The position numbers and the translations under genes were made by a program. A DNA stretch of 21,966 nt from the IMG/VR virus record IMGVR_UViG_2609460059_000007; one strand, given 5' to 3'. Numbering within the stretch: the stretch's first letter is position 1; each line of letters opens with the position of its first letter. This document shows, in pieces, positions 3,711 to 21,387 of this stretch. This stretch comes from a virus (taxonomy: Duplodnaviria > Heunggongvirae > Uroviricota > Caudoviricetes). The notes under the pieces are model-generated. The model was not told the DNA's origin, made no database searches, and saw only the letters and a list, made by a program, of their open reading frames with translations.

Positions 3711-4090
3711 ACCAGCCGCAGGTTTCCATTTTCCCGGTAGAAATGACCACCGCGCTTTACCGGCGGGCTATTGCTTCAGCATGGCGGCAGAAAATGCTGA
3801 ACGAAACTGGCAGTGATCAGTATGGTCCGCACAGCCTGACGGTGGAGCGTATTGAAATGGCCATTGCGCTGCATATCGAGTGCGTACTGATTAACGAGTA
3901 CGGCGAAGTGCAGGGCGCCGCTGCCGCGCTGGCACTGCTGACTGACATGCTGGAGCCGTCACTGCTGACCGCGCCGCCGGTACTGACCGCGCGCGGCTGT
4001 GAAGTGATGGCGGAGATGTACCGCACGCTTCCGGCGGCCTTTGATGACTTCTGCAGTACCGGTGTGACGTTGTATGAGGGGGAAGTATGA
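3707..4090 (+). CDS. Hypothetical protein immediately upstream of primase
   Basis: 127-aa ORF; ATGA overlaps on both sides (3707-3710 and 4087-4090) indicate an operon with the primase. Confidence 0.55.
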   Translation: MNQPQVSIFPVEMTTALYRRAIASAWRQKMLNETGSDQYGPHSLTVERIEMAIALHIECVLINEYGEVQGAAAALALLTDMLEPSLLTAPPVLTARGCEVMAEMYRTLPAAFDDFCSTGVTLYEGEV

Positions 4091-6759
4091 CAATACAGAC
4101 GGTTACGCAGGTTTCAGCCGCCGCACGGGGGAAATGGCCCGTTATTCTGCAGATGCTGCGTATTGATGTACCTGAAAACGGCAGGCACGGTCCCTGCCCG
4201 AAATGTGGGGGCAAGGATCGTTTTCGCCTTGATGACCTTGACGGGCGCGGGACGTGGATCTGCAGCCAGTGTGGCAATGGTGACGGTCTGGATCTGGTTA
4301 AGCTCGTAACCGGTTACAGCGTCAGAAAGGCTGCGCAGGAGGTGGCGCAGATGCTTAATGTGCCGGATATGCAGGAACTGCCTGTTAAGCCTGCCAGACA
4401 AAAAGCCCCTAAACGCGACATGGGTCTTACCGTGGCGGCGCTGATGAAAGAGAGCCACACGGGAGAAAGCGCCTATCTGACAGGAAAAGGGTTCGCCGGA
4501 TACCCGGCCTCTCTGACCGGAAGCGTACAGCATATCAGCGGTAAGGATTTTCCTGCCGGTTCCCTGCTGTTACCACTCACGACCAACACCGGAGCCGTGA
4601 CCGGTGCACAGCTTATCGCCCCGACGGGTGAAAAAAGCATACTGCCCGGCAGCACGATGAAAGGCGCGTTTGTGTCGCTCAGCCCGTTACCGTCTGAACC
4701 ACCGATACAGGTGGTGATTACCGAAGGTTACGCTACGGCGCTGACGGTAAGCCAGCTCACTGCCGGATGCGTAGTGGCTGCCATATCTGCGGGCAACCTG
4801 CCCAATGTGGCGCAGTCGCTGCGGGCACGCTGGCCTGAGGTAAAAATTATCATCGCCGGTGATAACGATTTTCAGGACGGGGGTGAGAATCCCGGCAGAG
4901 CCTTTGCTGAACGGGCGGCAAAAGCTGTTGGCGGCTGGATGACGCTGCCACCAGGAGAGATTAAGGCTGACTGGAATGACTTTCATCGGGAGCACGGTAT
5001 TACCCGTGCCCGTGAAGCCTTTCGCAACGGTCTGGTACTCTGCGGGGAAAGCCGCACGCAACTGCCGCACGGGTTCCGTCTTACCCAGGAATATCTCTGG
5101 TATGAAAAGCAGGTACAGCGCAACGGTGAGACGGAGATCCAGAACGTCAAAATATGCAGCCCGCTGCGCGTGACGGCAATCACCTGCGATGCCGATGGCG
5201 GTAACTTCGGACGACTGCTGGAATGGGAAGATACGTGGGGTGAGTGTCGCCGCTGGGCGATGCCGATGGAAATGCTGAGCGGCAGTGGTGAGGAACTGCG
5301 CCGGGTACTGCTGGTTAACGGGCTGTCTTATATCAGCACCACCGGTGAGGCACGCGCACGCCTGATGGAATATATCTCACTGTGTAAACCGGAACGCCGC
5401 GTGACCTGCGTCAGTCGTACTGGCTGGCATGGTCAGGTTTACGTCCTGCAGGATGAGGTCAGCGGTGAAGGTGCAGAGGGTGTCATTCTCCAGACCACTT
5501 CCGTGCAGGGGCGTGATTTCCGCGTGTCGGGCACAACAGAGGAATGGCGGGAGCATGTATCCCGCTACTGTACCGGCAACTCCCGCGTGGCATTTGCTGT
5601 CAGCCTGGCCTTTGCTGCACCACTGTTACGGCTGGTTGGTATGGACGGCGGCGGCTACCACCTCAAAGGGGAATCGACAGACGGTAAGACCACCACCATG
5701 AAAGCAGCAACCTCCGTCTGCGGCGGGCCTGACTACTGGCAGACGTGGCGGGCAACCGGCAACGCGCTGGAGGGATGCGCCAGCCGCCGCAACGATGCCG
5801 CCATGATGCTTGATGAGATCCGGGAAGTTGACGGACGCGAGGCAGGCAATATCGCCTACATGCTGGCAAACGGTCAGGGCAAGGGCCGTGCCGGTACGGA
5901 CGGTGAGCTGCGTACCCGTAAGCAGTGGCGCCTGTTGTTCTTTTCAACTGGCGAATTGTCTCTGACCGAACATGCGGCAAAGGCCGGTGAGCGTACTTTT
6001 GCCGGGATGGAAGTCAGGATGATCCAGATCCCCAGCGATTCCGGGAAGTTTGGCGTTTTTGAGGAGCTGCACGGCTTCGACAGCGGCAAGGCTCTGGCAG
6101 AGCATCTTGAATGGGCCACGTCCTGCTACTACGGTTCGCCGTTCCGGGAGTGGCTGAAAGCACTGACCGCTGATCTTAACGGACTAACGGCACAGGCAAA
6201 ATCGCTGATGAAGGAATATGCTGCCGCCCTGACTCCGAAAGATGCAGGCAATCAGGTGGGCCGGGCTGTGAACCGCTTTGCACTGGTGGCGATGGCAGGT
6301 GAACTGGCAACCCGTCTGGGTATCACCGGCTGGCCTGAGGGTGAAGCACTGCGGGCAACCCGCGTCTGCCTGAACGCATGGCTGAAAGATCGCGGGCACA
6401 CCGCCAATCAGGAAGATATCGCCGCACTGGAGCAGGTTCGCAGTTTCTTTACCGCGAATCAGTACAGCCGCTTTGCAGACTGGTATGACGAGCGCAACCG
6501 CCCCGGCAATATGGTGGGCTGGCGAAGGGTGGAGAAAGGCAGTACCGCGCAGGGCACGGAAGCTGTCACTACGTTCTATGTCATGCCGTCCGGCTGGAAA
6601 GAAATCTGCAGGGGATTTGACCCGCGCAAGGTGGCGCGTCTGTGCGCAGATCGTGGATACCTGCTGCCCTCCACTGATGGCAAACTCCAGACAACCATTC
6701 GCCCGCCAGAGATGAATCCCCGCAGGCTCTATGTCTTCAACAGCGAGGTGCCGGGTTAA
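4087..6759 (+). CDS. P4 alpha-like primase/helicase (zinc-binding primase domain + TOPRIM-like region + P-loop NTPase)
   Basis: 890-aa ORF; N-terminal CPKCGG...CSQCG zinc-binding motif typical of P4-type primases; Walker A-like GESTDGKTT around residue 525; large size and position before iterons match the P4 alpha replication protein. Confidence 0.9.
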   Translation: MTIQTVTQVSAAARGKWPVILQMLRIDVPENGRHGPCPKCGGKDRFRLDDLDGRGTWICSQCGNGDGLDLVKLVTGYSVRKAAQEVAQMLNVPDMQELPVKPARQKAPKRDMGLTVAALMKESHTGESAYLTGKGFAGYPASLTGSVQHISGKDFPAGSLLLPLTTNTGAVTGAQLIAPTGEKSILPGSTMKGAFVSLSPLPSEPPIQVVITEGYATALTVSQLTAGCVVAAISAGNLPNVAQSLRARWPEVKIIIAGDNDFQDGGENPGRAFAERAAKAVGGWMTLPPGEIKADWNDFHREHGITRAREAFRNGLVLCGESRTQLPHGFRLTQEYLWYEKQVQRNGETEIQNVKICSPLRVTAITCDADGGNFGRLLEWEDTWGECRRWAMPMEMLSGSGEELRRVLLVNGLSYISTTGEARARLMEYISLCKPERRVTCVSRTGWHGQVYVLQDEVSGEGAEGVILQTTSVQGRDFRVSGTTEEWREHVSRYCTGNSRVAFAVSLAFAAPLLRLVGMDGGGYHLKGESTDGKTTTMKAATSVCGGPDYWQTWRATGNALEGCASRRNDAAMMLDEIREVDGREAGNIAYMLANGQGKGRAGTDGELRTRKQWRLLFFSTGELSLTEHAAKAGERTFAGMEVRMIQIPSDSGKFGVFEELHGFDSGKALAEHLEWATSCYYGSPFREWLKALTADLNGLTAQAKSLMKEYAAALTPKDAGNQVGRAVNRFALVAMAGELATRLGITGWPEGEALRATRVCLNAWLKDRGHTANQEDIAALEQVRSFFTANQYSRFADWYDERNRPGNMVGWRRVEKGSTAQGTEAVTTFYVMPSGWKEICRGFDPRKVARLCADRGYLLPSTDGKLQTTIRPPEMNPRRLYVFNSEVPG

Positions 6760-7159: not shown

Positions 7160-7903
7160 ATGAACAATACCGCAGTAAATAACAACCTTTCCACTTTTCC
7201 GGCTGTAACGCAGCGGGCACTGGAAACCATGAACACAGCCAGAAACGCATGGCTTGAAGCACGTCGTCAGCAGAAAGCGGCAGCGGATAATATTGCGACA
7301 ATCCGCCAGCGTCGCGCTGAAATGGAAGCCACGACGAACACACTGAATGAGGAGTGGCGCACGCTGTTTCGTGAAAGTCAGGGCGTGGTCTCAAAGGAAA
7401 TGAAAAAACTGCGCACGGAAATTGCGCTGGGACGAGAAACGCTTGAGGATTTTGATGAGCTGCTGGCGGCTCAGGAAAGCGAAAATGCACTTTTGCCGCA
7501 GAAAGCTGCAGAATTAGCCGGAAAGTATATCCACGCGCATAACATTCTTGTGGATATTCGCGCAAAACAAATCTGGGAGGATTTTATGCAGTCGCATGGA
7601 AAAGCGCTTATTCAGACGCTGAGCCTGCTTAAATCCACAATGGGCCGGGAAGCCAGTGCCGTTGTGGGTGTGGTGAATTCAGTTAATGACCCGGACACAG
7701 TGCTGAAAGACTTTATTCATAAACATATCACCAGACCGGCTCTGGCTAACGATGCGATGCCTGAGCAGGACCCGGTGTTTAAACTGGCGGGAGTTGCCCC
7801 GGATTATGCGGCGCGTCTGGATTTCAGTAATCAACTCTCTCCGGCAGCTATGCATAAAATTAAGGTTCGTCAGGAACTCGCTGAGAAGGAGAAAGCAGTA
7901 TGA
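7160..7903 (+). CDS. sid: Sid-like capsid size-determination protein (Psu/Sid family)
   Basis: 247-aa ORF with AGGAG Shine-Dalgarno; N-terminal region (RALETMNTARNAWLEARRQQ) and internal FMQSHGKALIQ resemble the Psu/Sid family; first gene of the late module as in P4. Sid versus Psu-paralog assignment is not certain. Confidence 0.6.
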   Translation: MNNTAVNNNLSTFPAVTQRALETMNTARNAWLEARRQQKAAADNIATIRQRRAEMEATTNTLNEEWRTLFRESQGVVSKEMKKLRTEIALGRETLEDFDELLAAQESENALLPQKAAELAGKYIHAHNILVDIRAKQIWEDFMQSHGKALIQTLSLLKSTMGREASAVVGVVNSVNDPDTVLKDFIHKHITRPALANDAMPEQDPVFKLAGVAPDYAARLDFSNQLSPAAMHKIKVRQELAEKEKAV

Positions 7904-8451
7904 CGGCCCGAGGCACGCCTGACCAGGCACTTACCAGTTTTCGGAATGCCCGTATTCTGTGGGCCGGACATAGTGAGAGCCGAAAAGCCGTTGAACAACA
8001 GATAACATCTCTCCTCGCTGCCACAGAAAAACCAGCAGATTATGCCCGACAGCTCGAATTACTGCGGGAACGTCTGGATGTGCTGAAATGGCAAATTAAC
8101 TGTGCTGCGCGCGAATGCATTTACGCGCAGCATTTACTGATGGAGGCCTGCACAGAAGCCGCTCTCAGCAATTTTATGCAGGCGAATGGGGCAGCCCTGA
8201 CATCTGCACTGGCTCCGTTCCTGAAGGGGCGCGGAGGGGTTGACGTTGCGTCCCGTATATTACGCAGTGCTCTGGTTCGCCAGCTGGCAATAACACCGCC
8301 TGAAATTGCCGGGGATTATCGTGAGATCCTGGATGAATCCGGTTTGATACCTGACCCCGGGATGATTCGTGATTGCCAGGACTCTTACACCCCGGCACAA
8401 CATCTGCATTTTCAGCAACGCCTGAATGACATTAACGATATACAGGAGTGA
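7900..8451 (+). CDS. psu: Psu-like polarity suppression protein
   Basis: 183-aa ORF; segments VLKWQINCAARECIYAQHLL, FMQANGAALTSALAPFL and YTPAQHLHF align with my recollection of P4 Psu; start overlaps upstream stop (ATGA). Confidence 0.7.
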   Translation: MTARGTPDQALTSFRNARILWAGHSESRKAVEQQITSLLAATEKPADYARQLELLRERLDVLKWQINCAARECIYAQHLLMEACTEAALSNFMQANGAALTSALAPFLKGRGGVDVASRILRSALVRQLAITPPEIAGDYREILDESGLIPDPGMIRDCQDSYTPAQHLHFQQRLNDINDIQE

Positions 8452-8456
8452 TTTTA

Positions 8457-8729
8457 ATGGCACTTAAATGTCCGGAATGCGGTACAGTTGCACACGCCAG
8501 AACAGCAGCCTATGAAGCTCCGTCAGTTAAACGCTCGTGGTATCAGTGCCAGAATCTGGAATGTTCCTGCACATTTACGGCACTGGAGAGTGTGGATAAG
8601 ATAATCATGAAACCCCGGCGCAATGAACAGGAACCAGACAAATCACCCCCCCCGGTAAAACAACAGCAAACGCTCAATCGCTATGGCTCCGCGTCAAAAC
8701 TGTCAAGCCGTCAGCAGATTCCTGTCTGA
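8457..8729 (+). CDS. ogr: Ogr/Delta-family zinc-finger late transcription activator
   Basis: Product MALKCPECGTVAHARTAAYEAPSVKRSWYQCQNLECSCTFTALESVDKIIMKP matches the P2 Ogr pattern CPxC...AHART...YxCQNxxCSxTF...ESVxxxIxKP; I prefer the ATG at 8457 (AGGAG 9 nt upstream) over the GTG at 8448 used in the ORF track. Confidence 0.85.
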   Translation: MALKCPECGTVAHARTAAYEAPSVKRSWYQCQNLECSCTFTALESVDKIIMKPRRNEQEPDKSPPPVKQQQTLNRYGSASKLSSRQQIPV

Positions 8730-8749
8730 TTAGAAAAAACGCCCACGTA

Positions 8750-8775
8750 ATCCCGGTCGAGTACCGGGATTTTTA
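8750..8775 (+). terminator. Rho-independent terminator after the late module
   Basis: Stem ATCCCGGT (8750-8757) / ACCGGGAT (8763-8770) with 5-nt loop, followed by TTTTT. Confidence 0.7.
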
Positions 8776-8924
8776 ACACCTTTTCCCTGGCTGGCCTGAG
8801 AGCGCATGAGTGCATGTCTATAGCGCATGAAAACGCATGAACCTTATGCACCATTTTTGACGAGAAAGCCCTTGTGTGGTGGCTTCTGAGACGATTTATG
8901 AGGTGCATGAAAACCAGTCTGTTA

Positions 8925-8955: not shown

Positions 8956-9147
8956 CATCAACATAAAAATAACGGGCTGATATAGTTATAAAATCAAATG
9001 AACTCTTTTAGTACGACATGGGTATGTGCGCCAGTAGCAACGTCAGCCCCCAAGCTTTCTATTGTTCTTTTCTGTTGTACCATCAATACGTACCGATTAG
9101 CTCCTAAGCATCAATATCAGTTTGAACGTATTGCTTTGAACTAATTT

Positions 9148-9186
9148 TTAGATGATTTTTTTCATTAAAAAATTATAATGTTGTAG
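9148..9186 (+). promoter_or_regulatory. Candidate sigma70 promoter for the cargo operon
   Basis: Perfect -10 hexamer TATAAT at 9174-9179, weak -35 (TTAGAT, 9148-9153), in an AT-rich leader 35 bp upstream of the ATG at 9214. Confidence 0.4.
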
Positions 9187-9213
9187 ATAAAAAGAGAATC
9201 TTATAGAGGCGTT

Positions 9214-10062
9214 ATGTCAAATAAAGTTGATGTTTTTTTGAGCCGAGTTAGCCATGTATCACAGTTTGTATTGGTGGCATTTGCTATTTTTGGATATTTT
9301 TATACAGTAAGACCAATTTACCAAAAGGAACTTTTATCAGAAGAAATTGCAAAAAAAGAAGTTGAATTAAATAAATTAAAAACTGCAATGGAAAACTCCC
9401 AAAAATTTATAGAGAATAATAAAATCTTACGAAAAGAATTGGAGGGAAGCATTGCCAAACTTGATTTACAATACAAAGAATCAGAAGAAAAATTAAATTC
9501 AATAAATTCTGAACTAAGAAAAACTTTAAATGAACTAAATAAACAAAAGACCATTGCCAAAAGAGCGGTCAATGCAAACAACAAGAATCTTGAATCTGTT
9601 TTCTGGGAGAATTTTTCGGGGCTAGTTGGAGTAGTTTATATTTCTAAGAGCACAGATTTTGTGAACAATACACTGGGTGACGCCAAAACAGCCTATAATA
9701 CTCCTAGTAATTTATATATATCTCCTTATGATGCAATTAATGAAGCATTAAAAAATGGCAATCATAACTTTATCTCAAGTTCAGAAAATGTCCCTGAAAA
9801 TATCCGCAACAAAATTCTAGCAAAGATCCGTCGCGCTATTGAAAAAAATAAGATTTCATTAACAAAAAAACCTATCGGTTTTGATGAAAAAATTAATAGT
9901 CTGATAAAAACTATAGAGTCAACTAAGTTACGCAAAAATGAAAACGAAATAATGAAAAATAACACTGCAGAAAGAGAACTATCATCTTATATTTTCCTGA
10001 TAAATGGTCAATCAAGAATCCGCGCCATGGATTTCTTAAAAGACATTCAACATTTAGACTAA
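9214..10062 (+). CDS. Hypothetical membrane-anchored coiled-coil protein (cargo gene A of satellite hotspot)
   Basis: 282-aa ORF, strongly AT-rich; AGAGG Shine-Dalgarno; short N-terminal tail, one hydrophobic helix (VSQFVLVAFAIFGYFYTV), then a K/E-rich heptad-like region; no recognisable catalytic motif. Confidence 0.7.
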   Translation: MSNKVDVFLSRVSHVSQFVLVAFAIFGYFYTVRPIYQKELLSEEIAKKEVELNKLKTAMENSQKFIENNKILRKELEGSIAKLDLQYKESEEKLNSINSELRKTLNELNKQKTIAKRAVNANNKNLESVFWENFSGLVGVVYISKSTDFVNNTLGDAKTAYNTPSNLYISPYDAINEALKNGNHNFISSSENVPENIRNKILAKIRRAIEKNKISLTKKPIGFDEKINSLIKTIESTKLRKNENEIMKNNTAERELSSYIFLINGQSRIRAMDFLKDIQHLD

Positions 10063-10078
10063 TATTGGATATCTTATA

Positions 10079-10783
10079 ATGAATACTAATACTAAATTTG
10101 ATTTATGGTTGATTAGAGTAAGTTACATTGCCCAAGTTGGATTGTTTTTTTTGACAACCTTTACAATATTTTACACAGTAATTCCGATATACCAAAATGC
10201 AAATCTGCAGGAATCAATAGCAAAAAAAGAAATCGAATATAAACAATTACAAGACAAAGAAAAAACTCTATATTTAAAGTTAAGAAAGGAATATTCAAGA
10301 AAATATGTTGTTGATGCAATCTCCCAATGTTCTCCAACAGAAATACTTATGCGTCAACCATCTGAAGATGACAGTAAAAAATCACATGATGTAAGAATGA
10401 AGGAATTAAAAACATTTTTAAACAAAGATATAACCAGTTGCTTTGAAAAAACTTTTTATAGCAACCCTTACATTAAGGAATTAAGAGACACTGATCAACA
10501 AAATATTCTTCTTAAAATTAAAAATTTATCCCCCTCTATAACTAAACTACATGAAAAATATAAAGCAGAATTTGATGACGATAGCAAGTTATTGAATACT
10601 GGAAAAGAAAAATCGACAAGATTAAAAGAGGTGGAAGATTATTTAATAGGAATAGGAGGTTACACAGAAAACAGCAAAAAGGATTTTGAAAACTCATACA
10701 TAGAATCTGGAGCATATGACTTGGTTGTAAGGTATGGTTTTGAAGTCAACGATCTATTTTCCAAAACCATCAGAGACAATTAA
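10079..10783 (+). CDS. Hypothetical membrane-anchored protein, N-terminal paralog of cargo gene A (cargo gene B)
   Basis: 234-aa ORF 16 bp after gene A; N-terminus (IRVSYIAQVGLFFLTTFTIFYTVIPIYQNANLQESIAKKEIEYKQL) parallels gene A (SRVSHVSQFVLVAFAIFGYFYTVRPIYQKELLSEEIAKKEVELNKL) at protein and DNA level; C-terminal halves unrelated. Confidence 0.7.
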   Translation: MNTNTKFDLWLIRVSYIAQVGLFFLTTFTIFYTVIPIYQNANLQESIAKKEIEYKQLQDKEKTLYLKLRKEYSRKYVVDAISQCSPTEILMRQPSEDDSKKSHDVRMKELKTFLNKDITSCFEKTFYSNPYIKELRDTDQQNILLKIKNLSPSITKLHEKYKAEFDDDSKLLNTGKEKSTRLKEVEDYLIGIGGYTENSKKDFENSYIESGAYDLVVRYGFEVNDLFSKTIRDN

Positions 10784-10795
10784 TTAGGTGAACAA

Positions 10796-10823
10796 CCTCC
10801 TCTATTTTAATTAATAGAGGAGG
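10796..10823. terminator. 28-bp perfect palindrome (hairpin), probable terminator of the cargo operon
   Basis: CCTCCTCTATT-TTAATT-AATAGAGGAGG starting 13 bp after the gene B stop; no strong T-tract follows, so intrinsic-terminator assignment is tentative. Confidence 0.5.
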
Positions 10824-11392
10824 TGCTTAAATTATAAAAACATTTCAGGTTTGATTTAGATAACACGCAAATAAAAAACAAACTAATGAAATATATAAAT
10901 TAATTCTTAGGTATAAAATGTTACAATTAGAATATATTTAATTTTTAACTTTAAATCATGATAAATCTAAAAGTAAGCCCCCAAAAAACCTTCAAAACAC
11001 AATACGTCGTGTCTCAACCCCATGATATTTAGGGTTAAACCAAGTTATAGCGCTGACTGGTGAGCGGTTTGAAGTCATTCTGGTATACATAAAATGAAAA
11101 AATACATTGGGAGATATACCCCTGACTTACAGAGCTGGTAACGGTTACCAAGTCGCATTGTGTAATGCGTGGGGTGTAAAATTTTTTGGGTATTTTTTAT
11201 CCAGTAGCAGGTTAGCCCGCCCCCCCTGCTCCTAACGTTCTTTCATTCCTCTTTTCATCATTTTTAGAACGATATAAACAGATGGATCTCTATGGTTTTA
11301 ATGAGTCGATTTTATCGTCTGATGGTATCCATGATGGTACCTAAGAGAGAAAATAAAAAATAATACTTAAAAAACATGAAATTATAAATACT

Positions 11393-11415
11393 TTCGATTC
11401 CTGCAGGGGACACCA
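11393..11415 (+). other. attR-like direct repeat: 23-bp 3-prime end of a tRNA (T-loop through CCA), matching tRNA-Arg(CCU)/argW from memory
   Basis: TTCGATTCCTGCAGGGGACACCA contains the T-loop consensus TTCGATT, the 3-prime T-stem strand, acceptor strand and terminal CCA, but the 5-prime two thirds of a tRNA are absent (upstream is AT-rich non-tRNA sequence). Confidence 0.7.
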
Positions 11416-11852
11416 TCTATCATCCCCCTCGCAATAACCCACTTACAATCAGTGAGTTATCTTAAAATCCTTAGTATAGTCAACCAGTACTTCGATATGT
11501 GAACGCAAATCATCATGCATTCGTGAACTTAACTGGAAACCTCCCCCATTCGATGTCAAAATGACTACCCCAATAAGTTGCCAATAATCAGGCTAATCAA
11601 TACGGGTCAGTCTTGCTGGTCAGTGACCATAAAAATGTCACCTCATATTAGACACAGCAAATAATTGTGTCGATTAAACATACTACCTTCAGCATAACCG
11701 TTCCTGAAAAATTATTATATTCAGTAATCTGAATAAATTACTGGCCTGCTATTTTTCTTAGCAACCATATTTAGCAGCAAGCCAGCAAATCTGAATGATT
11801 ACAGATGCTGGCCTGCTGAATCTCCCTTCTGGAAATCGTCAGAATCTAGTGA

Positions 11853-12383
11853 TTACTTACTTTGTTCTGGTTTCTCTTCATTCTTATTGTGCACTTCCAC
11901 TTTGGGTAACTGATTAAAAACCAGATTTTCTTTTTCAACCAGAGCCATGACTTCTTTGGTGATATCAGCTGACTCGTTATGCGCAAGCACAACACCTGAA
12001 GACAATACAGCAATATTTTTAGGATTGTCTTTTCTCCATGTACCTATGGCATTATCTATCGCACGGGATAACACCATTTTTGCGCTATTTTCCTCAATAA
12101 CATATTGTCGCTCCAGTTTTTGTCTGGCATCAAGAAGCAGCGCCTCTTTATTCGCGTTATCTGCGAATGCTTTTTGCGCATCCTCATAGCCTTTTTCAAG
12201 AATACTCTTAACCTCATTCAGATGCTTTCTGACCATGTCTCCGGCGGCAGACTGATTATAAATAGCATCGATATTAACAACTGCAATTTCTTTTGACTTT
12301 TTCATATAAAAAACACCAGTAAGTACAATCAGCAACAGCAGCACTACTGCATTAACAACAGAAAATTTCATTACAGAACTCAT
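11853..12383 (-). CDS. Skp/OmpH-family periplasmic chaperone-like protein
   Basis: 176-aa ORF; hydrophobic N-terminal signal/anchor then IAVVNIDAIYNQ and C-terminal VLSSGVVLAHNESADITKEVMALV, paralleling E. coli Skp (IAIVNMGSLF...[25 protein letters not shown]) from memory. Confidence 0.65.
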   Translation of the reverse strand: MSSVMKFSVVNAVVLLLLIVLTGVFYMKKSKEIAVVNIDAIYNQSAAGDMVRKHLNEVKSILEKGYEDAQKAFADNANKEALLLDARQKLERQYVIEENSAKMVLSRAIDNAIGTWRKDNPKNIAVLSSGVVLAHNESADITKEVMALVEKENLVFNQLPKVEVHNKNEEKPEQSK

Positions 12384-12400
12384 TATGACAACCCTGAGGT

Positions 12401-12421
12401 GGCAGGAGGTCCCCTCCTGCC
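12401..12421. other. GC-rich hairpin between autotransporter and skp-like gene
   Basis: GGCAGGAGG-TCC-CCTCCTGCC perfect 9-bp stem; no T-tract, so more likely an mRNA stability/partial termination element than a full terminator. Confidence 0.4.
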
Positions 12422-12430
12422 ACTGTGTGA

Positions 12431-15400
12431 TTAGAATATATATTTAATACCCAGCATTGCCTGGGCATCACTGTACCCTTTATCGCCAGCCTGAACACCA
12501 ACATTGCCCCAGACATTCAGGTTATCTGACAATTTACCCTGAACACCCGTTTTGACTTCAGCAATATTTGTAGCTCCGTCCTGACTGAGTGCCGTATTAT
12601 CCATTTTGACACCCCAGCTCCGTGTATTATGGATCCAGTTAACTTCCACAAATGGCTCAAACTGATGCGCCTTATTATCATCAGACGCACTCTTACCTTT
12701 CAGGTAAGTTCTGACGCCCAGACGACTCTGGATATTACCGTCTCCGCTGAGCTGAACTTTCGTGCCATTCTTCTCCGTATGCTCACTGGCTCTTACATTC
12801 ATCCACGTGATCTGGGACTGCGGCTGAATATACCAGTCATAGTGACTACCCTGGCTACCGGTAAATTCGCCGGCTTTAAAGGTATAACCCGCTTCCACTG
12901 AACCGGTAAATCCACGGGATTTCCAGGACTCCGCAGCCAGTTTTTCACCATTAACGGTATTATTAAACCATCCGTACTGGATCCAGGTATCGACATAAGC
13001 CCCGTTGTCATTACCGTCATTCTGCTGCCACGTTCCGTATAAACCGGTGCTGTATCCATTGATCGCACCTTTAGATTTATATCCCGAAAGCGAGGATGTC
13101 GTGGAACTCTTCTCATTTCCATAACCGGCCATAATCCCCAGTTGCAGACGGTCCTGACCGTCAGTCCATTGCGCAATGCTGCCACCCAGTTGCACAACAT
13201 AACGGTTACTTTGCGTATTCAGCTGTGAACTGCTGTCCTTCCAGCGATTATGACCGCCGATATGACGCATCCACATACTTGTTGCTTTCTTCTCACCAGT
13301 AAACACATCGGTATAGTAAGTTTCCCCCTCACGATCGTGCATTCTGATGTTGAACAGCGTGTTGGCTGCCGCTATGTTCGCAATATAAGAGCCCGCTTCC
13401 GGACGATAGACCTTCTGTACAGGTTTATCCGGCGTGGGGTGTGGCTGTGGCTGCGGTTGTGGCTGCGGCTGCGGTTGTGGCTGCGGCTGCGGTTGTGGCT
13501 GCGGTTGTGGTTCTGGCGGCAATTCAGAACGCAGATACCAGTTACCGTCAGTACCACCCGCATTACCTTTATGCAGGAAATATTCCCACGCCCCTGCCAC
13601 CGCACGGTTCTGCAGTCTGAAGTTACCGTCAGACTGCCCACCGACATGCACAATCTCAATGCCGTCAGCGGTCTGAGCCCCCTGGCCCCGGACATTATTC
13701 ACCACCACGCCGGTATCACCGGAGGTGTTACCCGTGACAATCAGTTTGTCAGTGGTAGAAGTATCATCCCCCAGCACGGTATTGATAATTAACGTACCGC
13801 CACCGGTGTAATCGCCATTTACGGTCAGGGTATTTCCTGTCTTACCACCGGCCAGACGAATGACGCCGGTATTGGTCAGTGAGCCAACGGTAAAATTGCC
13901 CACCTCTGCCGTTTCATAACCTGAGAGAGCATTCAGTGATGCCAGTGTTCCCTGGTTATTAACCTGACCCGAAACGGTCCCCAGCCCACTCAGTGTGCCG
14001 CCATTAAGAACATGAATGTTTTTGGATCCTGACAACGTCGCGCCAGCGGCACGGGTGACTGAATCATCACCGACAATCAGAACGCCACTCTCAACCGTGG
14101 TATCACCGGTATAAGTCAGCTCATGATTAATGATCAGATTACCCGCCCCCTGTTTCACCAGAGCGCCGGAGCCAGTAATATCATTCTTCAGTAACCAGTT
14201 TCCACTGGCGGTAAGCCAGGTGACACCATCACTGTCAATCAGCCCGGTGCCCAGGTGTTTTTCATCTGAAGCCCGCAGAGCAGCATCTTTCTGCACACGG
14301 AATTCACCGCTGAAATTACTGTTATCCCCGGAAAGCGTCAGATCAGTGGTGTTCAGTATACCCACTGAACCTTCTCCGGAAAGCGATTTACTCAGGTTAC
14401 TGCTGACTCCGCTACCGTCGGCGATATCAATCGCCAGGCGATCATTAAGGCTTTCAAAGCTGATGGAGCCCTGGCTTCCCAGCCCCTGTGCGCCGTTCAT
14501 TTCAACCAGCGCCCCCTGGGTAAGGCTGGCATTACCGGTAAACCCGATATTGGTGCCATGTACCGTCAGATTGCTGCCCGTGACAGCCAGCGTTCCCTCA
14601 CCGGACAGCACGTTGTTTTCAATGATGCCACCATTATCATCCCCCGGCTGACGCTGCGTGCCGCTGACCGTTAGTACACTACCGCTATCAAGCTGAATGT
14701 GCGCTCCCGTTTCTGTCTGCAGTGCACCGACAGTCTGGCTGTATCCGTTTGTTCTGAAGACGGCATTGCTGGCGACGTTCAGATTACCTGTTGCGCCAAG
14801 TACATTATCATTTGCCATCTGTAATGTGCCGCTGCGCACCAGCGTATCCCCGGTGTAGTTATTACCGCCGTTAGACAGTGTGACAACCTGCCCCGCAGCT
14901 TCGATGGCCAGATCCCCTGCCCCCGTTAACTGTGCGCCAAGATCTGTCTGCAGTCCCTGGGCATTCGCTCTCGGTGTCAGCACCAGCGCTTTATCACCGG
15001 TTCCCTGTAAATCCAGCGACTTCAGCCCATAGCCTATGTACAGTCCGTCACCTTTAATACCGTCGGAGCTTCCCAGCAGCTTATAGTCATAATTTCCCTG
15101 AGCTACAACTTCACCGCCCTGAGTGACATCAAACGTCTGACTGTGAGAAATAGCCTGCCCGTTTTCATCCACCAGTTGCAGTTGCCCGCCAGTACCGGTG
15201 ACGGTACCCGCTGCATTCACCAGCGTGACCAGGGTCTGCGCATCATCCTGCTCCAGCAAATTCTTACGGGTATCAACAGCCGGAATATCATTAATCACTT
15301 CATCTGGCATGGTGACCTGAATTGTGCCTTTCCCCCGGATATCCAGCGTACCTGCAGCAGAGGTTTCAATACTGTTGCTGGCAATGGTATCGCCCGGCAT

Positions 15401-18400
15401 AACGGAACCAAAAATCAGCGTTCCGCCATTGAACCCAAGACCGCCAATCTGCTGAACACCGGAGCCAACCGTTGTGATATTCCCGGTTTCAGACATCAGC
15501 ATTGCATGGGTTAACCCGCTCGTATTCAGCCCTTCCAGAGCAAAGCTACTAGTACCCAGCTTCAGAGTTCCGGCAAATTGATCCCCGACGTTATGGCTGA
15601 ATTCAAAAGCAGATGTGTCGGCATCAAGACGGGCAGACAGTGTTCCTTTGCCTGTTAACAGTGGATCAAAGGTAAAGTTGCCTGCAACTGCGGGAATAAT
15701 GGCCAGTTCGCTGCCCGATTCAATATCGACGGAACCCGGACCGTTCCCCCCATCGGTCAGCACAAGAGCTTCCTTCAGAGTGACAAGTGAACTGTTCTTC
15801 AGCCCGACATGTTCGAAATTCTGTAGTTTTACAACAGAATCCAGCGTATGAATGGCGTTATCAAAAATCAGGGAATCAGAATCTCCCTGCCCGCCATCCA
15901 GCAGGTTCCAGGTTGCCCCTTCACCTTTAATGGTGAAGGTGTTCTTCCCGGTACCGGCAGTAACCTGATCAACATGAGTCTTACCATTGAGTGTTACATT
16001 ATTATTGCCATTTCCTGCAGTCACTTCTCCTGTCAGTGTGCTGCCATCATCAAATAAAAATGTATTGTTACCCTCTTTCGCACTGACGGTTCCGGTAATA
16101 CTGCCTTTATTGGTGAATGTGTTATCACCGCCGTTCAGAGCCACAACCCCCTGAATTTCAGCACCGCTGTCATTCAGTACGGTGGTATTCACGGCGTCAT
16201 CAAACGCCATTGCAGTCCCGGTGGTGGACGCAGCTTTAATCTGACCTTTATTGGTAAAGGATTGTGCTTTTGAAGCATCCACTACGGCATGACTCAGAGA
16301 AGCAGAGATGAGATTACCGCTCTGAACCACTTCACTGGCTGCATTGTTAACCACCAGAGCGGAACCGCCATCGGCCTGTATAACATTGACACTTGCACCA
16401 CTCTTCACGACAGCACCATCTTTAGTGTTGGCGAAAATACCCGTGCCGTCCGTACCCTTCAGGTTAATGACCAATCCAGCGGAGTCAGACATATCCAGGT
16501 TATTATCGGTTTCACTTCCGTCAGCTTTCTGGAACGCCAGTGCAATTCCACTGCCGTCTACATTAATAGTGCCGCTGTTGGTCTTGGCCAGGGAGGCAGA
16601 AGTACGTACACCAATGCCATCAGCCACATTAATTTCAGTCGTATTGGTTAACTGAATGCCTTCAATTTCTGCGCGGTTCTCAATCCCGTGACCGACCGCA
16701 CCTGCAGCATTAACATTGATTTTCGCACCATCAATAACCAGCCCCACAGCCCCTGTATCCAGCAGGATGCCATGCGCATTTTTCTGACCTTCGATCGTAC
16801 CCAAGCCACTCCCTGCCAGGTTCAGTGACGCGCCCGCCCCCAGCTTAATGGCAGCCTCACCATCCACAGCGACGATATCCCCTCCTGTGCTGGTAATCTG
16901 AGACTGTGCACCTTCAACAAATAATGCAACGCCATTGACCGCAATACGGCTTCCTGTATTTTCAAAGCGGCCGTTATCAACCCAGACGCCGATATTATCT
17001 GTACCGGTAGTGAAATCAATGTTGCCGTTGTTAATCAACAGTCCCTGATTACGCGTAATAAAGCCCTTGGCATTATTCAGCGGCGAAGAGATATCTGCCT
17101 CATTGGTAATAACCGAGCCAGTATTCGTTTGTGTAATACTGCCATCCAGAGCGTATTCATTTCCGTCAACTTCCGCGACAACAGCGCCATCCCCTACAAG
17201 GTTAACTGATGCCCCCTGTTTCAGCGTCGCTGTCGCACCACCAGTTACATATAATCCCTGAGCCTGAGCGCCCAGGATCTGGAAATCACTGCCAGCATCA
17301 GCCAGGACATTGCTCCCTTTCCCTGTGGCCCAGATACCACGGCTGCCTGTCCCGGAGGTTTTCATCAGCAGAGAGCCGGCCTGTTTTGCCCCATCTTCAA
17401 TACGGAAAAGTACAGAACGTTCCCCACTGGCATCCAGCAGAGTTCCCGGTGCAATATTCGTCTTAATGGTTGCACCATCTCCGATAATACGAAAAGCAAT
17501 CTGATCGGTAATACCAGAGCCGTCAGCAGCAAAGTTCGGTACTGCCGAACCATCAAGGTTAACAGTCCCTTTATTGCTGGCCTCAACGCCAATCGCCCCC
17601 TGTCCCTGCAAAGATATAGTACCCGCGGTCATATTAACCGTTGTTGTTGTACCAGATGCTTTTATACCCGTTGTACGGTTAGCATTATCTCCTCCCTTGA
17701 GAACGAGATTTCCCGAGTTATTAATCGTTGTAACATCTTGTGTGGCATTAGCAATTAGTCCCACACCACCATCCTGAACTGTAATATTTCCGCTGTTGGT
17801 ACCAACAGCCCCCTCCTCAACCCGGACGCCCACTGTATTCTTTCCAGTAAAGATGATATTACCGGTATTATTTAGAGTGGCCCCATTACGGGCGATATAC
17901 CCGGTCACTTTATCCTGGGTGGAACTTAACTGAGCCCCCGCCGTTAATAGTGTGGTCTTGTCCTTCGGATTAATGAGTTTGCCGGAAATATCATAGCCAT
18001 TGCCATCCGCAATACCGGCTATCGCACTGGCATTATCCATATTGATAATGGCATTACTTTCAATTGTGCCCTGCGCTCCCCCTTCAATTAAAGTCGCTGT
18101 AGCCCCCTCACCCGTCAGGTTGATGGTCATTCCTCCAGACGTTACTGTCGAGGCCACACCGCCATCCGATTTCCCCGTGGCAATAAGTGCATAAGAGTTC
18201 TTACCAGACGCCGTAAGTGCAGAAGAAGCATCTGCAGTTCCCTGGAATGTCGCACCACTGGCAATACGGAATAATGTTGAGTTTTCAGTGGACACATCCA
18301 TAACACCGCTTCCGGTATTATGAATGGCAGAGTCCTTTCCATAGACATAAAAGCCTATCTGATCGCTGCTGCCAAATAGCACTGCACCATTGCCTGACAG

Positions 18401-20374
18401 GGTCAGACTGCCGCCATCTTTAGCAAAAACCCCCACAGCCCCCGTACCGGCAAGACTGATTTTTCCGGATACATTAACATTGCTTCCGGCACCTTCCACC
18501 CAGGCACCATAGTTACGGAAACCACTACTGATACCCTTGCCGCCAACATTTATCGTACCGTCAGAATTCAACTGTCCTGCATTGATTACCTGTAGCCCGG
18601 TGCTGTTCAGACCATTAACATTGATAATCCCGGAGTTTTTCATCCCGGAGCTATTATTTGCCAGCATGCCAACATTCAGTGCAGGTGCATCACTGTCATG
18701 ACCGTCAATAGTGATAGTCCCTTTATTTACCACATCAACAGTCCCGGCATCCTTTGCCAGGATTCCGTAGTTCCCCTGAGCCCCCCTGCCCAAAAAAATA
18801 GTACCTTCATTAACGACTTTGTTTGCACCATTTTGTACTTCAATCGCAACAGAACCCACAGCCGAATGAGTCGCAGTTTTATCCTCCGCAATACCTACAT
18901 TGATGCTCCCGAAGGCCGAGTTAATAAAAGAGCCTCCAGCTCCAACATTTACACCTCGTGTTTTGCCATTATTATCATTAGTTGATGCATCGGCAGTAAT
19001 ATTTATTGTGCCTTTATTTGTTGCCATGCCCCCATTACTAACAACAATTGCGGTGTTAATCCCCTCTGGAGCGAAAGCATTTTTAAATGGGCGAATATTA
19101 ATAACACCATTATTAATGGCTGAAGAACCATTACTACCGGCAACCATCCCCTCTGCCTGGAGAGCATATTTATCATTATTATCCCAAACAAAAAGTGTAC
19201 CATCGTTAACAATGGTACTGTCTTGATAGGCAATCATTTCAGTACCAATGGCATCAATGACCCCTTCATTAACACCGGTCCCACCATTAGTTGCAACGAT
19301 CCCTCCTCCATTCCCATAGGCAGGAAGAACTCCAGTTAATTTACCCGTTTTACCTAATATTGCTCGTGCGTTATTGGTTGCATGGAGAACAGCAAGCAGC
19401 CCTACATTTTCTTTGTAAGGAGTTGAGTCTATACGTCCCCCAGCGGTCATATCCACATTGTAATTATGCTTGGTGACAATAAGGGCCTTATTAAATTCAG
19501 CATCATACTGCTTATAAGAAAGCGTTTTGTCCTCTAGTGACTTTATCAAATATTGATTATATTGCTTTAAATCATCAAGAGAGTTAATATGGTGTACTTT
19601 TCCCGCCCAATCAGTAATTGTTCCAGCATATTTCATTGAGTCAATGATTTTTTGAGTAACGCCGCCCCCCTGCATGGTTGCACCAGGCTGAAAATAAAAA
19701 TCATTGACCGAGTTCCATACAACAGAGGAACCTTCTCCATCAGCTACAGCAAGCTGTGTATTTTTAAAAAAATTACCGATTGCTGGTGAACCCACATCCA
19801 AAATAGCTGTACCGCCATTATTGGCTGTTACAAAACGTGTCGCATTGAAAAAATCCGCAGTGCCACTAAAACCAGGAATGGTTTCATTTCCCCCAGTCCC
19901 CGCATCGCGTTGTGAGAAAGAGTCAGTATCAAACACTTGAAGTGTTTGAGAAGCGCCAGTAACCTCATCCTTCACTGTAATGGTTTTTGTTTTTTCTCCG
20001 GTATTGACGTAAATCAATCCGGATAAATTATCTCCAGTGGTGTAGCCATTTAAAATTGCCTGTTCTACAGTCATCCAGATAAGACCTGACCCACCAGACT
20101 GGACGACATTTGGACCAGTGATGTATTCGGTTTTACCACTTACTGTTGCAGCCCCAACACCCGAGTTATTCGTACCCGGACGCCAGTCTGGTGACAATAT
20201 GACATCTGCCATTGCGTTATTGCAATTAATTGCAATAGCGCCCCCCAGAACCATTGCTGATAAAGCAATTCCTAAGCGAGTTGATTTACATTTTTTTCTA
20301 CAACTCGTCAATTCTGAAACAACATCCCATTTTTGGGTTGTATGGTTCCAAATGACTTTATATACTTTATTCAT
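12431..20374 (-). CDS. Giant type Va autotransporter adhesin (2647 aa) with extended signal peptide region, repetitive beta-helical passenger, (PQ)11 linker and C-terminal beta-barrel
   Basis: N-terminus MNKVYKVIWNHTTQKWDVVSEL is an ESPR-type extended signal; passenger is G/T/N/S-rich with recurring autotransporter beta-strand repeats (NNYTGDTLVRSGTLQ, LTYTGDTTVESGVLIVG); C-terminus ends ...LGIKYIF with aromatic terminal residue typical of autotransporter barrels. Resembles the UpaE/HyxA-type locus of ExPEC by architecture only. Confidence 0.9.
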   Translation of the reverse strand: MNKVYKVIWNHTTQKWDVVSELTSCRKKCKSTRLGIALSAMVLGGAIAINCNNAMADVILSPDWRPGTNNSGVGAATVSGKTEYITGPNVVQSGGSGLIWMTVEQAILNGYTTGDNLSGLIYVNTGEKTKTITVKDEVTGASQTLQVFDTDSFSQRDAGTGGNETIPGFSGTADFFNATRFVTANNGGTAILDVGSPAIGNFFKNTQLAVADGEGSSVVWNSVNDFYFQPGATMQGGGVTQKIIDSMKYAGTITDWAGKVHHINSLDDLKQYNQYLIKSLEDKTLSYKQYDAEFNKALIVTKHNYNVDMTAGGRIDSTPYKENVGLLAVLHATNNARAILGKTGKLTGVLPAYGNGGGIVATNGGTGVNEGVIDAIGTEMIAYQDSTIVNDGTLFVWDNNDKYALQAEGMVAGSNGSSAINNGVINIRPFKNAFAPEGINTAIVVSNGGMATNKGTINITADASTNDNNGKTRGVNVGAGGSFINSAFGSINVGIAEDKTATHSAVGSVAIEVQNGANKVVNEGTIFLGRGAQGNYGILAKDAGTVDVVNKGTITIDGHDSDAPALNVGMLANNSSGMKNSGIINVNGLNSTGLQVINAGQLNSDGTINVGGKGISSGFRNYGAWVEGAGSNVNVSGKISLAGTGAVGVFAKDGGSLTLSGNGAVLFGSSDQIGFYVYGKDSAIHNTGSGVMDVSTENSTLFRIASGATFQGTADASSALTASGKNSYALIATGKSDGGVASTVTSGGMTINLTGEGATATLIEGGAQGTIESNAIINMDNASAIAGIADGNGYDISGKLINPKDKTTLLTAGAQLSSTQDKVTGYIARNGATLNNTGNIIFTGKNTVGVRVEEGAVGTNSGNITVQDGGVGLIANATQDVTTINNSGNLVLKGGDNANRTTGIKASGTTTTVNMTAGTISLQGQGAIGVEASNKGTVNLDGSAVPNFAADGSGITDQIAFRIIGDGATIKTNIAPGTLLDASGERSVLFRIEDGAKQAGSLLMKTSGTGSRGIWATGKGSNVLADAGSDFQILGAQAQGLYVTGGATATLKQGASVNLVGDGAVVAEVDGNEYALDGSITQTNTGSVITNEADISSPLNNAKGFITRNQGLLINNGNIDFTTGTDNIGVWVDNGRFENTGSRIAVNGVALFVEGAQSQITSTGGDIVAVDGEAAIKLGAGASLNLAGSGLGTIEGQKNAHGILLDTGAVGLVIDGAKINVNAAGAVGHGIENRAEIEGIQLTNTTEINVADGIGVRTSASLAKTNSGTINVDGSGIALAFQKADGSETDNNLDMSDSAGLVINLKGTDGTGIFANTKDGAVVKSGASVNVIQADGGSALVVNNAASEVVQSGNLISASLSHAVVDASKAQSFTNKGQIKAASTTGTAMAFDDAVNTTVLNDSGAEIQGVVALNGGDNTFTNKGSITGTVSAKEGNNTFLFDDGSTLTGEVTAGNGNNNVTLNGKTHVDQVTAGTGKNTFTIKGEGATWNLLDGGQGDSDSLIFDNAIHTLDSVVKLQNFEHVGLKNSSLVTLKEALVLTDGGNGPGSVDIESGSELAIIPAVAGNFTFDPLLTGKGTLSARLDADTSAFEFSHNVGDQFAGTLKLGTSSFALEGLNTSGLTHAMLMSETGNITTVGSGVQQIGGLGFNGGTLIFGSVMPGDTIASNSIETSAAGTLDIRGKGTIQVTMPDEVINDIPAVDTRKNLLEQDDAQTLVTLVNAAGTVTGTGGQLQLVDENGQAISHSQTFDVTQGGEVVAQGNYDYKLLGSSDGIKGDGLYIGYGLKSLDLQGTGDKALVLTPRANAQGLQTDLGAQLTGAGDLAIEAAGQVVTLSNGGNNYTGDTLVRSGTLQMANDNVLGATGNLNVASNAVFRTNGYSQTVGALQTETGAHIQLDSGSVLTVSGTQRQPGDDNGGIIENNVLSGEGTLAVTGSNLTVHGTNIGFTGNASLTQGALVEMNGAQGLGSQGSISFESLNDRLAIDIADGSGVSSNLSKSLSGEGSVGILNTTDLTLSGDNSNFSGEFRVQKDAALRASDEKHLGTGLIDSDGVTWLTASGNWLLKNDITGSGALVKQGAGNLIINHELTYTGDTTVESGVLIVGDDSVTRAAGATLSGSKNIHVLNGGTLSGLGTVSGQVNNQGTLASLNALSGYETAEVGNFTVGSLTNTGVIRLAGGKTGNTLTVNGDYTGGGTLIINTVLGDDTSTTDKLIVTGNTSGDTGVVVNNVRGQGAQTADGIEIVHVGGQSDGNFRLQNRAVAGAWEYFLHKGNAGGTDGNWYLRSELPPEPQPQPQPQPQPQPQPQPQPQPQPHPTPDKPVQKVYRPEAGSYIANIAAANTLFNIRMHDREGETYYTDVFTGEKKATSMWMRHIGGHNRWKDSSSQLNTQSNRYVVQLGGSIAQWTDGQDRLQLGIMAGYGNEKSSTTSSLSGYKSKGAINGYSTGLYGTWQQNDGNDNGAYVDTWIQYGWFNNTVNGEKLAAESWKSRGFTGSVEAGYTFKAGEFTGSQGSHYDWYIQPQSQITWMNVRASEHTEKNGTKVQLSGDGNIQSRLGVRTYLKGKSASDDNKAHQFEPFVEVNWIHNTRSWGVKMDNTALSQDGATNIAEVKTGVQGKLSDNLNVWGNVGVQAGDKGYSDAQAMLGIKYIF
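13445..13510 (-). repeat. Eleven tandem hexanucleotide units (CTGCGG/TTGTGG/CTGTGG on plus strand) encoding (PQ)11 in the autotransporter linker
   Basis: Read directly: 11 consecutive 6-bp units at 13445-13510; in-frame, so copy-number change would alter linker length without frameshift. Confidence 0.9.
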
Positions 20375-20398
20375 AACACTAATACTCTTGAACGCACA

Positions 20399-21019: not shown

Positions 21020-21112
21020 GCAATCAATTTCCTGTTATCCCCTTTCCCAATTTCCTTTTGCTTTGCACACCGGGGGGAGACAAACCTTGAGGCACAGGTT
21101 TACAAAATGACC

Positions 21113-21387
21113 CATTTTGACAACATCAATTTAATTAACTACAAATAGCACAAAACGCAGGTAAAAAACCTGCGTATTTATTTTAATTCAGAATATAATT
21201 TTGATTGTTATTTACATTTTGGCTTTATACGCCAGAGATTAAAAAGAAGACAAACCTACCTCTTTATGTGTAGATTGACGCCGCACATTGATCTAAATCA
21301 GTAAATTTAATGTTTTTTATAGAAAAAAATGTTTTTCTATACGAGAATTTCTAAACAAAGATTGGGTTTACATTTTGGGTCAAAATG
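21113..21387. promoter_or_regulatory. Candidate invertible phase-variation switch flanked by 9-bp inverted repeats CATTTTGAC / GTCAAAATG
   Basis: CATTTTGAC at 21113-21121 and its reverse complement GTCAAAATG at 21379-21387, 257 bp apart; both embedded in local palindromes (CAAAATG-ACC-CATTTTG and CATTTTG-GGT-CAAAATG) each preceded by GGTTTAC; right repeat lies inside the last 14 codons of the recombinase gene. Confidence 0.45.
21155..21182. terminator. Hairpin with flanking T/A runs inside the putative switch (possible bidirectional terminator)
   Basis: Stem ACGCAGGT (21155-21162) / ACCTGCGT (21167-21174), 4-nt A loop, followed by ATTTATTTT on the plus strand and preceded by an A-rich run (T-rich on the minus strand). 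Confidence 0.5.

Follow-up and report, generated by a model that had tools for sequence, protein, structure and literature searches.

A pair of membrane-anchored coiled-coil proteins in the cargo hotspot of a P4-like satellite: a candidate for envelope-level phage exclusion

The viral record IMGVR_UViG_2609460059_000007 (IMG/VR, Caudoviricetes) was analyzed over its whole length of 21,966 nucleotides, referred to as the window in the following. It contains a P4-like satellite in which two neighboring genes, here named A and B, are inserted between the late genes and the right attachment site. Both genes code for proteins with one predicted transmembrane (TM) helix and a coiled coil. They share an N-terminal module (N-module) that recurs in a large family of hypothetical proteins, and end in unrelated C-terminal parts, here termed heads. 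Our tentative reading, held at somewhat less than even confidence, is that the A-B cassette represents an envelope-level phage-exclusion system carried as accessory cargo in the P4-like hotspot at tRNA-Arg.

The A-B pair and its slot in the satellite

9214-10062, + strand: gene A, open reading frame (ORF) of 282 amino acids (aa)
10079-10783, + strand: gene B, ORF of 234 aa

Both genes had been proposed as tandem paralogues in a first-pass annotation of the window, and the ORF calls returned them at these positions on the same strand, separated by a gap of 16 nt. The ratio of nonsynonymous to synonymous substitution rates (dN/dS) was computed against the A-B pairs in two other loci (L053 and L049). 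With values of 0.13–0.14 for A and 0.08–0.12 for B, and a still tighter N-module (0.03–0.10), A and B are real genes under purifying selection. Their GC content of about 0.29 lies in an AT-rich block (0.27–0.31 across 9001–11000), compared to 0.48–0.61 in the satellite backbone to the left. The composition is foreign to this backbone, as had been suggested.

In a BLASTP comparison residues 4–56 of A align with residues 6–58 of B (26 of 53 identical, 49 %, E=1e-12), and no other alignment was obtained. When the alignments of the A and B families were compared by hhalign, only the first 71 columns matched (E=1.2e-20, probability 99.3 %). Since nothing is aligned past these columns, the C-terminal parts of A and B are unrelated at the profile level, and remote homology between the two C-terminal domains was ruled out. 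The description of homologous N-termini (about 60–70 residues) followed by unrelated C-terminal halves therefore stands. Protein A exhibits a short N-tail and one TM helix (about residues 15–33) ending in FGYFYTVRPIYQ, and contains no cysteine. In B the same module (window 10079–10250) is present in a deviant form, FTIFYTVIPIYQN, and exactly two cysteines are found, C84 and C121, both of which are invariant across the B family alignment. Homologues of A (62) and B (17) come mostly from Enterobacterales and are without exception named hypothetical; some of them match only the first 20 % of the protein, with 55–79 % identity.

The earlier statement that neither protein contains a recognizable enzymatic domain or belongs to a known defence family was borne out by Pfam, PADLOC, PHROGs and NCBIfam. 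No match to Pfam was obtained for A or B. Against PADLOC-DB 2.0.0 the best match of A was LeoB with E=0.34 and B gave none, and ten distant family members returned coiled-coil noise only (JetC, PbeC, LmuB). Matches to PHROGs (E≥0.003) were likewise restricted to coiled-coil noise, including a marginal match of A to the Rz-like spanin family phrog_89 (E=0.008), which does not exceed the noise expected of coiled-coil sequences. In NCBIfam no match was found for B, and for A only a coiled-coil-level match to SMC far under the cut-off. Profile searches of both proteins against PDB sequences gave coiled-coil noise only. Across A, B and the distant members, matches to SMC, Rad50, JetC and EzrA were counted as such noise.

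Comparison of the predicted models of A and B with PDB folds yielded no match; the model of B, the only one compared with BFVD (Foldseek), gave a best E≥0.14. By tblastn no relative of A or B was detected in 50,697 phage records (INPHARED), and a search of plasmids with A gave just two matches, both from Burkholderia and both confined to the N-module. Homology to a housekeeping or structural phage protein was accordingly seen in none of PHROGs, PDB, BFVD (for B) and INPHARED. Since every homology-based membership test failed, A and B fall into no described family.

The position of the cassette between the psu-ogr late module and attR could be confirmed by Pfam assignments together with a repeat of the tRNA-Arg end. 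Homology to the sister satellites (about 840, megablast) ends at window position 8955, so that the variable region begins about 260 nt upstream of gene A. In two sister satellites that share the backbone (L007 and L008), this slot is occupied by DprA and PRTase. DprA-PRTase has been validated as an anti-phage system from the P4-like satellite hotspot (Rousset et al. 2022, PMC9122126), and its presence in the sister satellites agrees with the view that the slot is a variable cargo position of P4-like satellites. The ogr/delta side has a match in 846 of 5426 complete E. coli genomes, but the cassette is carried by only 7, in all cases with at least 99.9 % identity. The two genes are hence not conserved core genes, and a core or housekeeping gene was ruled out for the pair at this frequency. 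The RefSeq accessions of A and B were not found in the portion of the supplementary tables of Rousset et al. 2022 (PMC9122126) considered here. Literature searches with the accessions and the motif gave nothing relevant, and the Domainator paper makes no mention of TM proteins in hotspots.

The N-module family and its predicted topology

The N-termini of the family follow the approximate consensus D..L.R.S..SQ..L..LA.FGYFYTV.P.YQK.LL.E.IA.K..EL. A search with a hidden Markov model of the A family revealed at least 719 clusters (50 % identity) with a threshold of E≤1e-3, of which 424 reach E≤1e-10, with the match restricted to the N-terminal module in most of the 150 listed hits. At the profile level, the shared module thus marks a family of at least this size and is not private to the A-B pair. 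In 132 members that elsewhere share about 20 % identity, P34 does not vary, and conservation reaches at least 90 % for Q17, G27, Y28, Y30, T31, V32, L41 and E43. The members derive from Gamma- and Betaproteobacteria, Desulfovibrio-like genomes, Zixibacteria, Ignavibacteria and Bacteroidota.

A genuine Pfam domain was found in none of the 132 members; weak matches to DivIC (PF04977) in two of them (best E=2e-5) are far below the Pfam cut-offs and represent coiled-coil noise. A sample of distant members gave no match in NCBIfam or PADLOC, and the family appears to be uncurated in the databases searched. A word-index protein search with the N-module profile returned short fragments only and was uninformative on domain fusions. 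Remnants of the N-module of 50 aa are widespread (for example L044 2515–2667 and L062 6188–6340). One protein of this kind, P0226, occurs on 49 contigs, complete E. coli genomes included, suggesting that family genes are often decayed or replaced.

At least eight distinct loci preserve A and B as a unit, and in the six pairs measured the two proteins diverge together, with identities (A/B) of 82/79, 74/73, 50/51, 46/37, 42/40 and 36/36 %. A and B do not necessarily form an obligate two-component system, since A-like proteins (Pantoea L012 and L022, Marinicella L013) as well as B-like proteins (Pectobacterium L009, Klebsiella indica L015) also occur alone. The module of paired B proteins is deviant, FT[IL][FY][YF]TVIP[IL]YQN; solo B-like proteins keep the canonical FGYFYTVRP.YQ, and their modules are up to 77 % identical to that of A (L009, L015). 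Judged from these motifs, the deviant module of paired B could be a specialization for life with A. In the Pectobacterium protein P0051 an A-type N-module (77 % identical) is joined to a B-like C-terminal part. The sequences hint at module swapping and pair-specific divergence.

The neighborhoods of the family genes were inspected as well. The A-B pair lies 3' of Ogr/Delta in a degraded satellite of Cronobacter (L027) and in an IMG/VR contig (L030), and in Pantoea (L022/23) a family gene shares an ssrA island with an Ogr/Delta gene. In Klebsiella pneumoniae (L024–26) the family gene adjoins a NACHT/nSTAND NTPase, in Roseateles (L018) it is located directly 3' of HamA2/HamB2 Hachiman, and in Rhodoferax (L021) it is flanked by PDC-S60/caspase and PDC-S31. 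A CBASS operon together with an integrase (L011), HEC-03A/B (Pantoea L022) and a RES toxin gene were also found beside family genes. One pair (L003) is embedded in a toxin-immunity island that comprises immunity genes for colicin and cloacin along with CdiI and PAAR-pyocin S, and in Pantoea L022 the family gene also adjoins a CdiA-like TPS/Fil_haemagg gene with small downstream ORFs. The commonest neighbor families among 41 metagenome loci were Ogr_Delta, Phage_integrase, transposases and RES. In P2-like prophages (gpA replication protein, Dam methylase, integrase) an N-module gene overlaps the 3' end of int at the prophage edge, an arrangement that suggests co-transcription with the lysogeny operon:

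L031, 7968-8774: N-module gene of a P2-like prophage
L032, 7992-8774: N-module gene of a P2-like prophage
L033, 7998-8174: N-module gene of a P2-like prophage

The orientation in the membrane was predicted from 135 representatives. The net charge of the N-tail amounts to +3.6 on average, compared to -1.0 in the 20 residues after the TM helix, and many N-tails consist of runs of K and R. The positive-inside rule for an orientation with the N-terminus inside and the C-terminus outside (N-in, C-out) is satisfied by 95 % of the members. The number of cysteines after the TM helix is even in 97, odd in 8 and zero in 30 of them. Such a parity is characteristic of extracytoplasmic domains with disulfide bonds. 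Together, the charge of the tail and the cysteine counts point towards the N-in, C-out topology, in which the coiled coils and the variable heads are probably periplasmic and the head of B is probably stabilized by a C84-C121 disulfide. Predicted periplasmic domains of this kind favor envelope-level exclusion or sensing over sensing in the cytoplasm.

AlphaFold2 gave confident, all-helical models of both proteins, with pLDDT values of 86.7 (A) and 87.7 (B). The model of A exhibits a single helix from residue 3 to 153 followed by a C-terminal helical bundle, that of B a helix from residue 6 to 84 followed by a globular helical domain. Past the TM segment the helix of A extends over about 85–120 residues, that of B over about 50. 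With straight helices, the models would place the head at a distance of roughly 12–17 nm from the membrane in A and roughly 7 nm in B.

Transcription signals, satellite ends and flanking genes

8749-8776, + strand: hairpin (8749-8771) followed by UUUUU, after ogr/delta; stem 9 bp, -13.2 kcal/mol, z=-2.2
8956-9213, + strand: 5' leader, start of the variable region, read from the sequence and a promoter scan
10784-10830, + strand: hairpin directly after the B stop codon; -21.4 kcal/mol, z=-5.75, equalled by none of 200 shuffled sequences

The first-pass annotation had described the cassette as bracketed by a terminator and a palindrome and as equipped with a TATAAT promoter of its own. RNA folding supports both the upstream hairpin and the downstream palindrome, the latter with perfect 12-bp arms at 10795–10806 and 10813–10824, but a strict scan for consensus terminators called neither of them. 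The upstream structure is likely an intrinsic terminator shielding the cassette from late-operon transcription, and the downstream hairpin is a probable transcript end or stabilizer. The promoter claim turned out to be weak: the -10 hexamer TATAAT is present at 9174–9179, but it stands alone, with no acceptable -35, and was not called by the promoter scan. A better promoter-like site (TCAACA-17-TATAGT with TG) is located at 8958–8986, where the homology to the sister satellites stops. A Shine-Dalgarno-like AGAGG was found at 9202–9206, upstream of gene A. The leader region also contains a 48-aa ORF (8998–9144) with backbone-like GC content. An imperfect 15-nt direct repeat (9039–9053, AACGTCAGCCCCCAA; 10970–10984, AAAGTAAGCCCCCAA) flanks the AT-rich block; it is too short to interpret and may have been left by recombination during cargo exchange or have arisen by chance.

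1-1275: int (Pfam integrase)
4087-6759: primase (Pfam Zn-ribbon/Toprim/DUF927)
7160-7903, + strand: Sid-like protein, weak Pfam Psu match (E=1.8e-9), directly upstream of the true psu
7900-8451: psu (Pfam Psu)
8448-8729: ogr/delta (Pfam Ogr/Delta)
10831-11395: non-coding stretch, AT-rich to about 10975, with attP-arm-like GATGGTA repeats at 11322-11342
11396-11416, + strand: attR core TTCGATTCCTGCAGGGGACAC; repeats the tRNA-Arg 3' end in direct orientation and closes the satellite on the right
11853-12383, - strand: OmpH/Skp-like protein
12431-20374, - strand: UpaE, 2647-aa phase-variable autotransporter adhesin
20399-21019, - strand: LuxR/GerE regulator
21337-21966, - strand: tyrosine recombinase

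The host element is a P4-like satellite. Because its gene order is sid-psu-delta, compared to sid-delta-psu in P4, it is a distinct P4-like subtype. A candidate cos that had been placed at the late module was not recovered, as the P2/P4 cos 19-mer has no match within 3 mismatches in the window. The attR-like tRNA fragment proved correct. In E. coli LR9-2 the identical element sits between tRNA-Arg and dsdC, and the core at 11396–11416 equals the last 21 nt of this tRNA at the left junction (L001 3093–3113). The sequences of the window and of L001 part ways directly after this core, and GATGGTA motifs likewise adjoin attL in L001. Since attP falls between the cargo and int in this subtype, the cargo is located at the end opposite int in the integrated state, and an extraction from psu to int would therefore miss the cassette. 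A stretch of 16 nt within gene B (10205–10220, CTGCAGGAATCAATAG) is 88 % complementary to the attR core (11391–11406, CTTTCGATTCCTGCAG), probably by chance.

Directly 3' of int a 293-aa ORF is found (1306–2187, + strand, GC 0.33–0.41, hypothetical in RefSeq). It gave no match in Pfam, PADLOC, PHROGs or NCBIfam and may represent a second satellite cargo slot at the int-proximal end. To the right of attR, the minus-strand genes from 11853 to 21966 form the E. coli UpaE autotransporter island, a flank that is present in about 250 of the 5426 E. coli genomes.

Possible functions and comparison with known systems

As a mechanism for envelope-level exclusion we propose that A and B would be paralogous single-pass inner-membrane proteins with a short cytoplasmic N-tail and a periplasmic body (type II bitopic). 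The near-invariant TM and juxtamembrane module (SQ..L...A.FGYFYTV.P.YQK.LL.E.IA.K) would serve as the anchor and probably drives homo- or hetero-oligomerization. Coiled-coil stalks of unequal length would carry two unrelated helical heads into the periplasm, where the heads may contact incoming phage components or host entry factors. Such contact would lead either to a block of genome delivery, as in superinfection exclusion, or to activation of the conserved membrane module. We infer the phage-exclusion function and the blocking step solely from the position of the cassette and from the neighbors in other genomes. From the interpretation first given, the slot, the foreign composition, the shared N-module and the lack of known relatives have held up, and the promoter claim is weak.

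Several observations weigh against exclusion. Exclusion is a candidate function of A and B, and the topology is a prediction based on charge and cysteine statistics. Neither protein has a sequence match to a known exclusion or defence protein in PADLOC or PHROGs. The motif is kept from Proteobacteria to Ignavibacteria, Zixibacteria and Bacteroidota, which is hard to explain by one phage-entry factor and may point to a housekeeping membrane role. A solo member beside nif genes (L005) and another located 20 nt after an RND pump gene (L010) have no mobile or defence neighbors, and the loci suggest an association with defence islands in only a handful of cases. A-like and B-like genes occur solo (L009, L012, L015), so that any coupling of A with B is putative.

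A wider version of the exclusion idea, namely that A and B are founding members of a cross-phylum family of periplasm-facing immunity proteins, in which an invariant single-pass membrane module, as common anchor or effector, is combined with interchangeable helical heads on coiled-coil stalks of differing length to intercept genome delivery, is to be regarded as rather unlikely. If true, such a family would constitute a new envelope-level defence class, distinct from cytoplasmic sensor-effector systems and from the narrow superinfection-exclusion (Sie) proteins.

Instead of preventing entry, the cassette might code for an abortive-infection (Abi) membrane effector, an explanation to which we assign a low probability. 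Here, the periplasmic heads would sense the infection and the TM module would oligomerize into a pore or depolarize the inner membrane, so that the cell dies before release. As expected of an effector, the membrane segment is the most conserved part of the family, and the variable C-terminal parts look like interchangeable sensors, for instance in the combination found in P0051. A lone TM helix with neither an amphipathic nor a multi-TM partner is, however, a weak pore former, and predicted periplasmic sensors would encounter few infection cues there besides entry. Abi-type neighbors (CBASS, Hachiman, RES and AbiGi) and the general view that TM proteins of hotspot systems are suicide effectors (Rousset et al., PMC9122126) count in favor of an effector. 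Against it stands that neither toxicity nor an antitoxin-like partner is in evidence and that the TM effectors in PADLOC gave no match.

A non-phage envelope function as lysogenic-conversion cargo is also improbable in our view. It would comprise protection against periplasm-acting bacteriocins or against toxins of contact-dependent inhibition (CDI) or the type VI secretion system (T6SS), or else a role in envelope stress, division or surface modulation. The pair inside the toxin-immunity island (L003), the Pantoea L022 copy next to the CdiA-like gene and the solo members in plain chromosomal settings are consistent with such a role. No toxin gene, however, adjoins A and B in the window or the family genes at most other loci, and family genes recur in the P4 hotspot, at the end of P2-like prophages nearest to int, and as neighbors of Hachiman, CBASS or PDC genes. 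The architecture, a single TM helix and a periplasmic coiled coil, is FtsB/DivIC-like, but the weak Pfam DivIC matches in 2 of the 132 members mentioned above do not rise above noise.

A role in the satellite life cycle itself, be it in helper entry, in lysis timing or release as a spanin or holin modulator, or in the exclusion of rival satellites, is very improbable: the pair does lie directly 3' of the sid-psu-delta helper-exploitation module, and an i-spanin shares the architecture of a TM helix and a periplasmic coiled coil, but the pair is dispensable for the life cycle, as only 7 of the roughly 847 E. coli records with the same backbone carry it, the family also occurs far from satellites (Hachiman-adjacent Roseateles, Desulfovibrio-like genomes), and the marginal phrog_89 match of A is noise for a coiled-coil protein. 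On either strand of 9100–10900 no ORF with a signal peptide and a lipobox was detected, and hence no embedded or adjacent o-spanin lipoprotein; neither a holin nor an endolysin was found near A and B in the window. With no o-spanin ORF and no lysis context, the spanin reading was ruled out.

Returning to exclusion, the cassette can be compared with described systems of several kinds. With respect to the P4-like hotspot cargo (PMC9122126), A-B occupies the identical slot on the circular map, from the psu/delta-cos side to int/att. It is likewise AT-rich and variable in content, the sister satellites carrying DprA-PRTase there; A and B show no homology to any of the validated hotspot systems in PADLOC. 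The position is of the moron or lysogeny type, with hotspot cargo bracketed by hairpins, and a relative that overlaps the int 3' end in P2-like prophages.

The Sie proteins HK97 gp15, T4 Sp and Imm, P22 SieA and lactococcal Sie2009 are inner-membrane-anchored and come from prophages. Similar to these, A and B are small, non-enzymatic, AT-rich morons of temperate elements, with probable expression in the lysogen. The Sie proteins have a single N-terminal TM helix followed by an extracytoplasmic body; for A and B such an arrangement is predicted and favored by charge bias and cysteine parity. In contrast, A and B are much longer and possess long coiled-coil stalks, and the known Sie proteins are narrow and phage-specific, whereas the A/B family extends across phyla with an invariant membrane motif. 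No homology of A or B to a described Sie protein was observed (PHROGs E≥0.003; none in INPHARED; BFVD, B only, E≥0.14).

The TM effectors of Abi systems (CBASS, Pycsar, RexB, retron 2TM, Rst_Hydrolase-3TM, Rst_2TM_1TM_TIR) are, like A and B, non-enzymatic membrane proteins of defence islands and hotspots. They are paired with a cytoplasmic sensor or a signal-generating partner, which the A-B cassette lacks. Moreover, the bulk of A and B is predicted to be periplasmic, and PADLOC returned no match. The i-spanin Rz and the division proteins FtsB, FtsL and DivIC are bitopic proteins of type II in the inner membrane and possess a coiled coil in the periplasm, as predicted for A and B. FtsB and FtsL, two bitopic coiled-coil proteins that resemble paralogues, combine into a heteromer, and Rz has periplasmic cysteines. 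In contrast to Rz, A and B have neither an o-spanin partner nor a lysis-cassette context. The likeness to Rz and to FtsB/DivIC is architectural and not one of homology.

To our knowledge, both sensing and action are cytoplasmic in almost all bacterial defence systems characterized so far, and very few systems operate from the periplasmic side. Known exclusion proteins form small families tied to one phage group. If the family is protective, it would add a widespread envelope-level class of immunity, provide a handle on periplasmic events during genome delivery and account for many of the loci that appear as two adjacent hypothetical genes in hotspot catalogues. If it is not, the invariant motif still points to a conserved interaction in the membrane that deserves identification. 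At about 2 kb the cassette of E. coli is short, and it appears to be self-contained. In comparison with the described systems the protein family is new, while the kind of element is familiar: a defence hotspot of a temperate element with non-enzymatic membrane proteins as cargo. What sets A and B apart from other hotspot loci with two hypothetical genes is the size of the family, the cross-phylum invariance of the motif and the predicted periplasmic orientation.

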